UHGV virus genome: UHGV-0164984
Source of the DNA: a virus
DNA length: 35,681 nucleotides
Strand: one strand, 5' to 3'
Positions 3,381 through 8,860 of this stretch are shown piece by piece (within the stretch, counting starts at the first letter, position 1; each line of letters opens with the position of its first letter). Position numbers and translations under genes: made by a program. The notes under the pieces were generated by a model. That model searched no databases. It saw only the letters and a list, made by a program, of their open reading frames with translations, and was not told the origin of the DNA.

Positions 3381-3596
3381 TTAATTTTGTTCTCTGGTTG
3401 CTACCTGTTTTATTGGCCTGATGCTGTCCAGGATCAGACGGCGACGCATGTTTGGCGCACCCCAACGGTAACCAGTCTTTTTGTCGTAGGATTCACAACG
3501 TCCGGCAACCCAGGACGTTTCAGTGGAATGTAATTTCATCCGCTTTTCACCGTCTCGGGTGATAACAATTCCTGTATGAGTTTTTATCACGCTCAT
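3381..3596 (-). CDS. Hypothetical small prophage protein
   Basis: 71 aa ORF in the leftward operon, start overlapping the upstream gene stop. Confidence 0.45.
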   Translation of the reverse strand: MSVIKTHTGIVITRDGEKRMKLHSTETSWVAGRCESYDKKTGYRWGAPNMRRRLILDSIRPIKQVATREQN

Positions 3597-4740: not shown

Positions 4741-4960
4741 CCAAGACAACACACAGCATAAAGTTGTGGTGCCGGGTGCCTCCCGGTGCCTGGCGAAGGT
4801 TGTACACCAGACGGGTGGGTATCCACAGAAGGTCGACTGTCAGCCTCAACCTTAACCCGCGTGCGCTGAGCCGCATTCACCACAACGCTAAGGATTCTCT
4901 CTGGTTGAAAATACTTAGCTGTTATGTGCCTGCTTTTAGCCACATCAGGCGAGGTGGACC

Positions 4961-4995
4961 TGGTTATTCCCCAACAACAAGGATTCGGTATAATC
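4961..4995 (+). promoter_or_regulatory. Candidate sigma70 promoter for rightward accessory operon
   Basis: Perfect TATAAT at 4989-4994 about 30 nt upstream of the first micro-ORF; -35 region weak. Confidence 0.35.
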
Positions 4996-5026
4996 TGGAT
5001 ATCCCAACAACAGGTAGGAAGGAAAT

Positions 5027-5110
5027 ATGTACGTAGATAGCAATGAAAAATTTCATGTTCCGGTAAATCAGAGACCAGCACCGATCCCTGAGCCGAAACC
5101 TGAAATGTAA
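5027..5110 (+). CDS. Proline-rich micro-ORF A (27 aa; MYVDSNEKFHVPVNQRPAPIPEPKPEM)
   Basis: Strong SD AGGAAGG 4-5 nt upstream of ATG; shares an HVP...RP.P.PEPKP motif with two downstream micro-ORFs. Confidence 0.4.
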   Translation: MYVDSNEKFHVPVNQRPAPIPEPKPEM

Positions 5111-5120
5111 GGGAATAGAG

Positions 5121-5600
5121 ATGACTCGAGACGATCTAGCATTCGATATTCATTATTCTTTCTTTCTTGAGAAAATGAATTACACCCTTTTAAATCGGAT
5201 AGACAAGAGCATAACTCTTGTTCTCATTGTCTTGGGCTTTTCTGTTTTTGCGCCATATAGCAATATGTTTATTTTTGGCGCATCTGTAGCTATTTTGTCG
5301 GTGCTTCAATTGGTATACCAATTTGGGCAGGAAGCTGGCTTATCAAAGGAACAGATGCGACAGTATAAAAGGTTGATTGTTGAGTTTTCCTCCCTTTCTG
5401 ATGACGAACTACGCACTCGGTTTTTAAAGGTTCAAGACGCTGATAGTAATCCATGGAGATCTTTACAAGATGCTGCGTTCAAACGGACCTGTATTGCGCT
5501 GGGACGTGTTGATGAGTCAGAAATATCATTCATGCATAGCGTTATCGCATGGTTTGCTGGAGATTTGCCTCGGTCAAAAAGGTGTAATAATGACAAATAG
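5121..5600 (+). CDS. Small membrane protein, two predicted TM helices, unknown function
   Basis: 159 aa; hydrophobic stretch LVLIVLGFSVFAPYSNMFIFGASVAILSVLQLVY; AT-rich; in immunity-adjacent position on strand opposite to cI. Confidence 0.6.
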   Translation: MTRDDLAFDIHYSFFLEKMNYTLLNRIDKSITLVLIVLGFSVFAPYSNMFIFGASVAILSVLQLVYQFGQEAGLSKEQMRQYKRLIVEFSSLSDDELRTRFLKVQDADSNPWRSLQDAAFKRTCIALGRVDESEISFMHSVIAWFAGDLPRSKRCNNDK

Positions 5601-5706
5601 AATTCCCATAATCCCTAACCATGTACCTCCAAAGCCCAGACCACCATCACCAAAGTCACACAGGCTTTATGAGTATGAATTAATAATGGATTCTATATTG
5701 AGATGA
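5590..5706 (+). CDS. Proline-rich micro-ORF B (38 aa; ...IPNHVPPKPRPPSPKSHR...)
   Basis: ATG at 5590 overlaps the upstream gene end; AGGTG SD; motif paralogous to micro-ORFs A and C. Confidence 0.35.
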   Translation: MTNRIPIIPNHVPPKPRPPSPKSHRLYEYELIMDSILR

Positions 5707-5710
5707 CCAA

Positions 5711-5800
5711 ATGAATGCATTTATATATACATGGAAAGAGGATCATATACCCTTAAAACCTCGTCCTTCACCGCCAGAACCGAAGCCAAAATCCCGTTAA
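5711..5800 (+). CDS. Proline-rich micro-ORF C (29 aa; MNAFIYTWKEDHIPLKPRPSPPEPKPKSR)
   Basis: Starts 5 nt after micro-ORF B stop; same HIP.KPRP.PPEPKP motif encoded with synonymous codon differences. Confidence 0.35.
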   Translation: MNAFIYTWKEDHIPLKPRPSPPEPKPKSR

Positions 5801-5837
5801 GTGTTGGGGATCTCCAGATTGTTAAAGAGCGAAGCGT

Positions 5838-5866
5838 CCTATAGGGCGCTTTTTTGTTGCTAACGA
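5838..5866 (+). terminator. Intrinsic terminator ending the rightward accessory operon
   Basis: Stem AAGCGTCC / GGGCGCTT with loop TATA, followed by TTTTTTG. Confidence 0.5.
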
Positions 5867-5929
5867 ATCATCCTGGACTTCATATGCCCCAGGCGGCTAC
5901 TTCGTGGGCGTCCTGCCTGTTCGTTGTTT

Positions 5930-5970
5930 CGCTTGGGTACATTATGTATCTCAAAGGTACATTGTCAAGT
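5930..5970 (-). promoter_or_regulatory. Candidate pL-like early-left promoter with CI operator half-sites
   Basis: On minus strand TTGACA (plus 5963-5968), 16-17 nt, CATAAT/ATAATG (plus 5940-5946); GGTACA half-sites at 5936-5941 and 5956-5961 resemble the cI-cro operators. Confidence 0.45.
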
Positions 5971-7918: not shown

Positions 7919-8860
7919 ATGAGCACTAAATTAACCGGCTATGTATGGGATGGTTGCGCTGCATCAGGCATGAAGTTATCCAGCGTGGCAATTATGGCCC
8001 GCCTGGCTGATTTCAGTAATGACGAAGGTGTGTGCTGGCCATCAATTGAAACCATTGCCCGTCAGATTGGCGCGGGGATGAGTACCGTCAGAACGGCTAT
8101 CGCACGGCTGGAAGCAGAAGGCTGGTTAACGCGTAAGGCGCGTCGCCAGGGTAACCGCAATGCGTCGAATGTTTATCAGCTTAACGTTGCGAAGCTTCAG
8201 GCAGCGGCATTTTCTCAACTGTCAGATTCTGACCCGTCAAAATCTGACGCATCAAAATCTGACCCGTCAAAATTTGATGCGTCGAAATCTGGCAAAAAAG
8301 CGGGTTTTCACCCGTCAGAATCTGGCGGGGATCCGTCAGTAAAATCAAAACATGATCCGTCAGATAAAAAACCTTCTCGTCCGGACGCTTCGCAACCGGA
8401 CACGCAGACGGCTGAACAGGATTTTTTAACTCGCCATCCTGATGCGGTTGTATTCAGCCCTAAAAAGCGCCAGTGGGGAACGCAGGATGATTTGACCTGC
8501 GCACAGTGGCTCTGGAAAAAAATCATCGCCCTGTACGAGCAGGCCGCCGAATGTGACGGCGAGGTGGTTCGTCCCAAAGAACCTAACTGGACAGCCTGGG
8601 CAAACGAAATTCGCCTGATGTGTGTGCAGGATGGTCGTACTCACAAACAAATCTGCGAGATGTACAGCCGCGTCAGCCGCGATCCGTTCTGGTGCCGTAA
8701 CGTGCTCAGCCCGTCGAAGTTGCGGGAAAAATGGGATGAGCTTTCCCTGCGCTTATCGCCGTCCGTCAGCACGCACACAGAAAAACGTGAAGACCCGTAC
8801 TTCAAAGCCAGTTACGACAACGTGGACTACAGCCAGATCCCGGCAGGATTCAGGGGGTGA
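7919..8860 (+). CDS. Replication initiator (O-like, N-terminal HTH; internal iteron-encoded linker)
   Basis: 313 aa; N-terminal winged-helix-like region (…WPSIETIARQIGAGMSTVRTAIARLEAEGWL…); tandem DNA repeats inside the gene; position after cII-like gene. Confidence 0.75.
   Translation: MSTKLTGYVWDGCAASGMKLSSVAIMARLADFSNDEGVCWPSIETIARQIGAGMSTVRTAIARLEAEGWLTRKARRQGNRNASNVYQLNVAKLQAAAFSQLSDSDPSKSDASKSDPSKFDASKSGKKAGFHPSESGGDPSVKSKHDPSDKKPSRPDASQPDTQTAEQDFLTRHPDAVVFSPKKRQWGTQDDLTCAQWLWKKIIALYEQAAECDGEVVRPKEPNWTAWANEIRLMCVQDGRTHKQICEMYSRVSRDPFWCRNVLSPSKLREKWDELSLRLSPSVSTHTEKREDPYFKASYDNVDYSQIPAGFRG
8231..8373 (+). repeat. Iteron-like direct repeats (putative replication origin) inside replication initiator gene
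   Basis: About 15-bp units GACCCGTCAAAATCT / GACGCATCAAAATCT / GACCCGTCAAAATTT / GATGCGTCGAAATCT (8231-8290), further CCGTCAG-containing copies to about 8373, followed by A-rich stretch. Confidence 0.6.

Follow-up and report, generated by a model that had tools for sequence, protein, structure and literature searches.

The sequence analysed here (the window) is the whole 35,681-nt (35.7-kb) virus genome UHGV-0164984, which is an Escherichia coli prophage of the SfV/e14/CPS-53 lambdoid type. Positions 5027 to 5800 carry a cassette of four small genes: three proline-rich micro-open reading frames (micro-ORFs A, B and C) and, between A and B, the gene for a 159-aa two-transmembrane (2TM) protein. 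Comparative sequence analysis indicates that this cassette is a conserved, so far undescribed small-protein module. The reading that we favour, with somewhat less than even confidence, is that the 2TM protein would be expressed in the lysogen as a membrane effector for exclusion or abortive infection, with the peptides as its protein partners. An earlier note on this DNA, made from the letters alone, had drawn attention to the micro-ORFs; the SLATT-like character of the membrane protein, the two peptide classes of opposite charge and one peptide–membrane protein fusion go beyond it. The features discussed are as follows.

4900..5012, no strand assigned: conserved left flank of a variable cargo slot, with TATAAT at 4989–4994 and two CCCAACAAC repeats
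5027..5110, plus strand: micro-ORF A, upstream 'U' class, 27 aa, proline-rich with an acidic C-terminal end (ATG and Shine–Dalgarno sequence; orthologues)
5121..5600, plus strand: 159-aa 2TM all-helical protein, putative divergent SLATT relative (RefSeq annotation, AlphaFold2 (AF2), BFVD, NCBIfam)
5590..5706, plus strand: micro-ORF B, downstream 'D1' class, 38 aa, basic, proline-rich (SD-like AAGGTG; orthologues)
5711..5800, plus strand: micro-ORF C, downstream 'D2' class, 29 aa, basic, proline-rich (orthologues)
5831..5858, plus strand: intrinsic terminator with a 9-bp GC-rich stem, a 4-nt loop and a T-run, closing the rightward unit within the conserved right flank

The earlier note had claimed three ORFs with a common core in which the peptide is kept while the codons diverge, and both points are borne out. 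The peptides of ORF A (MYVDSNEKFHVPVNQRPAPIPEPKPEM), ORF B (MTNRIPIIPNHVPPKPRPPSPKSHRLYEYELIMDSILR) and ORF C (MNAFIYTWKEDHIPLKPRPSPPEPKPKSR) share the pattern H-[VI]-P-x-x-x-R-P-x-P, the respective cores being HVPVNQRPAPIPEPKP, HVPPKPRPPSPK and HIPLKPRPSPPEPKP. When the six-frame translation of the whole window is scanned with the loose core expression H.P.{1,5}[RK]P.{0,2}P, four matches are obtained: the three micro-ORFs and one unrelated site at 8351. Pairwise comparison of the three cores gives proportions of synonymous differences (pS) of 0.51–0.71 and of nonsynonymous differences (pN) of 0.23–0.35. The strong Shine–Dalgarno (SD) sequence reported before ORF A is present (AGGAAGGA at 5016–5023), and the ATG of ORF B lies in the +1 frame, overlapping the final 11 nt of the 159-aa ORF. 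The description of one rightward unit closed by a terminator also stands, but the terminator itself is misplaced at 5838–5866; it consists of a hairpin at 5831–5852 plus a T-run, slightly to the left.

The 159-aa protein has 78 homologues in Enterobacterales, 47–100% identical over full-length matches. The comparison set comprised 57 loci: the window, three from GTDB species-representative genomes (the only loci found in a scan of these genomes) and 53 from viral contigs. Their 2TM proteins are 45–100% identical to that of the window, and the forward frames around the gene were scanned. In total, 142 motif-bearing micro-ORFs were found. The earlier note had made maintenance of the motif in frame at homologous loci decisive for its proposal, and such micro-ORFs are present in 57/57 loci: two in 30, three in 23, four in 3 and one in a single locus (L047), the upstream peptide of which (MANDEGDKYFERHMPGRKIPPPPPKPKDEDEK) was overlooked by the regular expression. 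The start codon is ATG in 139 of the 142, and 141 have an SD-like element 3–11 nt upstream. The motif occurs 142 times within the 52 kb of modules (forward frames) versus three times in the other 239 kb (six frames).

Codon statistics were calculated on the ungapped 11-codon core, for which 60 distinct DNA sequences were available. The first, second and third codon positions have nucleotide diversities of 0.34, 0.28 and 0.68, respectively; pS has reached saturation (0.77), and the pooled pN/pS ratio is 0.40. The near-invariant arginine of the motif is encoded by AGG, AGA, CGT, CGC, CGA and CGG; its histidine, arginine and proline are retained despite the saturated third positions. Selection on the amino acid is the only explanation for the codon-position pattern together with the AGR/CGN switching. 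The synonymous versus nonsynonymous analysis among homologues, which had been suggested as a check, therefore upholds the proposal of a translated small-peptide family under amino-acid selection, and the micro-ORFs behave as genuine genes under purifying selection as peptides.

An opposing explanation would make the motif a repeated DNA or RNA element, or the imprint of an opposite-strand ORF, and the micro-ORFs incidental. They are indeed very short, and none is annotated by RefSeq: in the copy of E. coli strain GE3 the 159-aa gene alone is annotated, as 'hypothetical protein', and none of the three micro-ORFs. This explanation is at odds with third positions that are saturated against conserved first and second ones, with the switching of arginine codons and with the almost constant ATG and SD-like elements. 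It also conflicts with the behaviour of indels. At locus L003 a single 53-aa ORF with both motifs takes the place of B and C, which in the window occupy different frames; between the motif copies, the frame has thus been shifted by indels. The copies themselves stay in an open, startable frame and none is interrupted. On the opposite strand beneath the motifs there is no ORF longer than 24 codons. The incidental-ORF explanation, to which we give next to no credence, appears from these comparisons to be effectively refuted.

The micro-ORFs fall into two classes. U peptides, with orthologues in 56 of the 57 loci, are 24–43 aa long and have the consensus ..[YF]EE[KR]H[MLV]P.x[QK]RP[PE].PPKP followed by an acidic tail. 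One to three D peptides follow the membrane gene; they are ~19–30 aa long, for example MS[KR]P..IPNH[VI]PP[KR]PRPPAP[KG].. or MSRPIEPFHVPPRPRPPQPGK, and D1 has a conserved N-terminus, MS[KR]P..P[NF]H. U peptides have a median net charge of −2, D peptides one of +3 to +4. Most D peptides end 2–7 residues past PRPP; the B peptide of the window is atypical, ending 19 residues past the motif. A small number of U peptides are included in public protein sets, under the name 'hypothetical protein' where a name is given. Profile searches with the peptide alignments recovered the same family alone, again as 'hypothetical protein' wherever named, and no independent genomic context, because most D peptides are too short to be called as genes.

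A profile search extended the 2TM family to 246 clusters at 50% identity; nearly all of the best 150 of these are ~105–190 aa long and matched over most of their length. Genomic context was examined for eight relatives with ~25–35% identity. A proline-rich ORF ends just 5' of the 2TM gene in L060 (MKYINSCGERRDYQPPRPRPTPPPK), L063 (...HVPPKKPPQPTKR) and L061/62 (...KGAPPKAPPKK); it is barely recognizable in L059 and L071, and in the AT-rich contig L072 the upstream peptide is reduced to YHV... with an acidic tail. No upstream proline-rich ORF was found in L064 and L073. Relatives 34–35% identical are encoded by two P2-like phages, Salmonella LT2 phage Fels-2 and Yersinia phage vB_YenM_42.18, with U peptides directly upstream that read MSDSDNFHVLPRPAPAPKPEPGQDKK, much like ORF A of the window and its closest counterpart in a distant relative, and ...NDFHILHKPAPPEEKKTDDEE, respectively. 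Because U is retained in distant relatives, the core of the module is U plus the 2TM gene, and the D genes are an elaboration of the enterobacterial lambdoid clade. In both Fels-2 (L074, NC_010463 30256–30798, with U immediately before 30367) and vB_YenM_42.18 (L075, 2950–3615) U and the 2TM gene are unannotated and hypothetical ORFs are called on the opposite strand, probably a misannotation.

The genes are closely packed. Between the U stop codon and the 2TM start there are 6–20 nt, with 16 of the 26 distinct versions at exactly 8 nt, and in 15 of 24 distinct junctions the TGA of U is joined to the GGT of the SD sequence of the 2TM gene (gacTGAGGTgnnnnATG; TGAGGT-N5-ATG). The corresponding junction of the window is TAAGGGAATAGAGATG (TAAGGGA). 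Of 23 distinct D1 versions, 18 start in the +1 frame and 7–28 nt inside the 2TM ORF. Past the conserved ...AGDLP, the 2TM protein varies in length and content, and the D frame is the conserved frame of the overlap. This layout points to translational coupling of the U, 2TM and D genes as one unit.

A different explanation, which we hold to be somewhat unlikely, is cis-acting translational control, in which the micro-ORFs would matter as translated sequences and not as free products. U would be a leader or arrest ORF whose proline-rich nascent chain and acidic tail slow elongation, or termination at a stop codon placed on an SD sequence. It would thus gate 2TM synthesis by the translational state (EF-P, prolyl-tRNA, Mg2+/intrinsic ribosome destabilization or release-factor supply), and the D ORFs would affect mRNA fate or coupling. 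The position of U agrees with this: its stop overlaps or abuts the 2TM SD sequence in most loci, commonly with the 8-nt gap, and U, in each case directly ahead of the gene, is what the remotest relatives still have. PP, PPP or APP, motifs that depend on EF-P, are present in most U and D peptides. At 24–35 aa, U would lie wholly in the exit tunnel at termination, a situation reminiscent of TnaC and SpeFL, which arrest at their stop codons. The earlier note had, as speculation, likened the motif to stalling leaders, and the likeness to leader and arrest peptides (TnaC, SpeFL, MgtL/MgtP) holds for U, which is short, proline-rich and immediately upstream, with its stop on the SD sequence of the next gene. 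It leaves unexplained the D copies, additional paralogues with no downstream gene to regulate. It is weakened further by a U subgroup with no Pro-Pro dipeptide, which includes ORF A of the window (HVPVNQRPAPIPEPKPEM), the Fels-2 U peptide and P0238/P0241/P0243. From the last PP to the 2TM ATG the distance is 21–51 nt, so that steric occlusion by a polyproline-stalled ribosome is not conserved. The predicted RNA fold of the U/2TM junction (4995–5150, window sequence) has z = 0.2 against shuffled sequences and reveals no structure or switch. Polyproline stalling would need neither the conserved histidine and arginine nor the class-specific N-termini. Cis control and the favoured partner model are compatible and not mutually exclusive.

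The partner model draws on a fusion that occurs naturally in Pectobacterium. There the 2TM protein continues in frame from its C-terminus into D1 (...GDLPTEKESKMAKPPVDGHIPPRPRPPAPPKAQN; ...AWIAGDLPTEKESKMAKPPVDGHIPPRPRPPAPPKAQN), for a total of 180 aa; the identical protein occurs on six contigs (three assemblies inspected), and U is still upstream. Among 224 family proteins scanned this is the sole true 2TM–peptide fusion, the other match to the regular expression being a mis-called ORF. Tight coupling and a natural fusion would be consistent with an effector accompanied by a small antitoxin.

Runs of 5–8 A precede the D1 ATG inside the end of the 2TM ORF, with A5 in the window and A8 in three loci; runs of 7–8 A are found at L004 (~3440–3475), L045, L016 and L068 (~1950–2000). 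The junction of the Pectobacterium fusion differs from that of Sodalis by one base in the A-run (GGAAAAAAAAGATGG vs GGAAAGCAAGATGG). Slippage at long A-runs could give some fused product in those loci. As a general mechanism of 2TM–D1 fusion, programmed frameshifting or transcriptional slippage was rejected on two grounds: each D1 keeps its own ATG and SD sequence, and the A-runs are short in most loci, the window included. Two other identities were also discarded, a spanin (Rz1-like) for want of a lipobox cysteine and a ribosomally synthesized and post-translationally modified peptide (RiPP) or microcin for want of a maturation or export gene.

The AF2 model of the 2TM protein of the window is all-helical (pLDDT 78), with a long N-terminal helix running into TM1 (residues 3–41), TM2 (49–66) and then four cytosolic helices; the cytosolic domain covers residues ~68–150. 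DSNPW and AWxAGDLP are conserved motifs of the protein. The hydrophobic stretches of the two hairpin helices are ITLVLIVLGFSVFAPYS and MFIFGASVAILSVLQLVY. The model thus has two adjacent transmembrane helices in a small all-helical protein, a SLATT trait. In a Foldseek comparison with viral structures (BFVD), most of the matches were proteins with a SLATT domain (probability near 1, E-values 5.6e-3 to 0.3). The domain families SLATT_1 to SLATT_6 were reportedly defined by Burroughs and co-workers in 2015. Of 46 distant members of the 2TM family, 20 match NCBIfam SLATT_4 (best E 2.2e-5), six SLATT_1 and one SLATT_fungal; none of the 46 matches a Pfam SLATT model. UniRef names three homologues SLATT. 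On the strength of the Foldseek matches, the NCBIfam matches of the relatives and the UniRef names, the membrane protein is treated here as a putative divergent SLATT branch, closest to SLATT_4. It belongs to PHROG 6315, a family of unassigned function. Pfam and NCBIfam scans of the proteins of the window gave nothing significant, and the 2TM protein has no match to the Pfam SieB or Rex families at E ≤ 1.

Some phage-defence systems use a SLATT protein as their effector, for example DRT10/UG17. The 2TM protein resembles such effectors in its fold match, in its small size, in a membrane hairpin of two helices with cytosolic helices on either side, and in its defence-type position on a mobile element. 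Unlike these systems, the cassette has no enzyme partner of the nucleotide-generating or reverse-transcriptase kind: no nucleotide-processing or -generating partner (SMODS, SLOG, reverse transcriptase, etc.) occurs in the window or the inspected loci, where, ordinary prophage genes aside, the only conserved neighbours of the 2TM gene are the proline-rich micro-ORFs. A further difference is that the protein of the window reaches no curated SLATT model.

Window positions 4900–5900 are 100% identical to E. coli strain GE3, in which RefSeq annotates yfdR (5'-deoxynucleotidase) to the left of the cassette and a LexA-family cI-like repressor, a Cro/YdaS-like protein and YmfL to the right. The complete cassette is present in 53 of 5,426 complete E. 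coli genomes (~1%). The flanks of the slot (the first ~110 nt and the last ~100 nt of the cassette region) are common to ~1,880 complete E. coli genomes with other cargo, for example an ECs1072-family gene with a small antisense/convergent ORF (L002 2500–3370). The first ~113 nt of 4900–5900 are 90–100% identical in ~1,880 E. coli genomes and in 19 phage records with other cargo, and the terminator flank on the right side of the slot (5800–5900) is conserved also where the cargo differs. Since ~1,880 genomes have both flanks and a different cargo, the slot, which adjoins the immunity region with its cI-like repressor, is variable, and the cassette is one of its alternative cargoes. In the otherwise identical prophage of strain GE3, an ISEc23 element (IS66-family) is inserted between yfdR and the cassette (L001 2045–4461); the insertion point corresponds to the interval between 4509 and ~4560 of the window, which lacks ISEc23.

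On the favoured reading, the cassette would run from an acidic proline-rich U through a SLATT-like 2TM protein to the basic proline-rich D1 and D2, in an accessory slot beside the cI-like repressor and pointing opposite to the early-left operon. It would be expressed in the lysogen, where the 2TM protein would act as a toxic membrane effector. The micropeptides would bind it as polyproline-II-type ligands and either hold it inactive or set its trigger, in the manner of small labile antitoxins or sensors, and the module would have a role in phage defence, by exclusion or abortive infection. The case for a membrane effector is that the 2TM protein appears SLATT-related and that the cassette occupies a variable slot beside the repressor. 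For a role of the peptides as products, the arguments are the opposite and conserved charges of U and D, the conserved N-terminal segment of D1, the Pectobacterium fusion, and the D genes themselves, which have no downstream gene to regulate because the terminator comes next. The U subgroup with alternating xPxP and no Pro-Pro argues in the same direction; its sequences suggest that polyproline-II propensity is preserved and the EF-P-dependent stalling motif is not.

Several observations weigh against this reading. At E ≤ 1 the protein of the window has no Pfam or NCBIfam SLATT match, and PADLOC gave no match for the proteins of the window. No sigma-70 site was called by the promoter scan in 4900..5012, and the promoter of the cassette was not found. 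The free peptides, at 21–35 aa, are probably unstructured. In the AF2 model of the Pectobacterium fusion, the putatively docking tail has a pLDDT of ~65 after a linker below 50. Finally, the overlap of the U stop with the SD sequence fits a purely cis-acting role equally well.

Lambda RexA/RexB and P22/lambda SieB with its small modulator Esc are membrane exclusion modules that are expressed in the lysogen and lie beside the immunity region. The cassette has in common with them an accessory membrane protein beside a lambdoid repressor gene and a small product of the same locus that may modulate it. It differs in having no sequence relationship to them (no Pfam SieB or Rex match) and in being convergent with cI instead of co-transcribed; moreover, Esc is an in-frame internal product of sieB, whereas the proline-rich peptides are encoded separately. 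Sofic, of the toxin–antitoxin/abortive-infection type, is regulated by a short protein (PMC12249575). Pairs of the Sofic type likewise have, on a mobile element, a small upstream gene in tight coupling with a potentially toxic effector; the cassette differs from them in that its putative effector is bracketed by several paralogous peptides (two to four), which carry opposite charges.

The earlier note had also compared the motif, again as speculation, with ribosome-targeting proline-rich peptides. On this view the basic D peptides would be intracellular phage analogues of proline-rich antimicrobial peptides (PrAMPs), binding the exit tunnel or DnaK and acting in trans. PrAMPs of the apidaecin type bind in the exit tunnel and trap release factors. 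They share with PrAMPs (apidaecin, type II; oncocin and Bac7, type I) a length of 20–30 aa (21–29 aa for D), a positive net charge and a PRPP core that follows an aromatic or histidine residue, an aliphatic residue and proline. Their core [H]-[VI]-P-P-[KR]-P-R-P-P-x-P resembles YIPQPRPPHP of apidaecin and YLPRPRPP of oncocin, and in many D peptides PRPP is only 4–7 residues away from the C-terminus, which gives a likeness that strikes the eye (PKPRPPAPKG-COOH vs PQPRPPHPRL-COOH of apidaecin). Type II PrAMPs are defined by a conserved C-terminal PRPPHPRL with a free carboxylate and an Arg-Leu warhead (PMC11549390). The analogy fails at this point, as the family-defining end is absent: no D peptide ends in HPRL (the ends are ...PRPPAPKG, ...PRPPQPGK, ...PRPPAPPKR and ...PRPPAPQPKPK), and the distance from motif to C-terminus varies. 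The phage peptides are, besides, encoded inside the bacterium by a prophage, their U paralogues are acidic, and the Pectobacterium fusion tethers one D1 copy to a membrane protein. An active ribosome inhibitor made constitutively by a prophage would harm its host, and likeness among low-complexity Pro/Arg sequences is weak evidence. We regard free PrAMP analogues as quite improbable. A broader variant, in which the peptides would be exit-tunnel ligands, nascent at their own stop codons and/or free and PrAMP-like, that couple the translational state to a SLATT-type pore, seems to us improbable.

The basic charge of the D peptides has one further possible meaning. They might bind DNA or RNA like SPKK or AT-hook tails, be freed once an infecting phage breaks down nucleic acid, and thereupon switch on the membrane effector. 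Their net charge of +3 to +4 and their richness in P, K and R would suit such a nucleic-acid-bound sensor, and a precedent exists in the recently described PANGU systems, which pair a nucleoid-associated sensor protein with a transmembrane effector. The peptides have no DNA-binding fold or known motif, and U, the most conserved partner, is acidic; the chance that this is their role is very remote.

In the literature searched, proline-rich micropeptides with a SLATT-like or other prophage membrane protein are not described. What is new is the small-peptide partner family; the prophage accessory cassette with a SLATT-type membrane effector is of a known kind. The restraint and triggering of SLATT-type effectors (signal sensing) are described in the literature as an open question. 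If the peptides regulate the 2TM protein, the cassette would offer, in minimal and genetically tractable form, a system that controls a pore-type effector, and the peptides would be a new bacterial small-protein family overlooked by annotation pipelines. Action through the ribosome would make them the first analogue of proline-rich antimicrobial peptides from a phage or bacterium, and the exit-tunnel variant, if true, a phage counterpart of animal PrAMPs used as an intracellular sensor. As the module is also present in Salmonella LT2 phage Fels-2, it is testable directly with public data and standard genetics.

The flanks of the slot contain signals of a leftward transcript. The minus strand has an exact match to the boxA consensus (CGCTCTTTAACAA) at 5831–5819, the only one in the window. 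It adjoins the base of the terminator hairpin (minus strand 5852–5831), position 5831 being part of both. About 110 nt upstream of boxA, a strong promoter-like TTGACA-16-CATAAT, directed leftward at 5968–5941, is flanked by GGTACATT repeats. The promoter-like site and boxA look like pL followed by an antitermination site of the rrn/nut type. Together with the Rfam match given below, they suggest that what is conserved on either side of the cargo is part of the early-left (pL) transcript, including its antitermination signals. A flank holding pL and the antitermination site would explain its conservation whatever the cargo, and the cargo would therefore lie antisense inside that transcript; prophage induction could then silence the antisense cassette. 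Farther left, 4916–4693 on the minus strand gives a sub-threshold match to Rfam STnc100 over the full model length (39.6 bits vs a gathering threshold of 47, E 1.1e-6). RefSeq treats this stretch, which all related prophages conserve, as a hypothetical pseudogene with a frameshift. Instead of a decayed gene, it may represent a structured RNA belonging to the leftward transcript.

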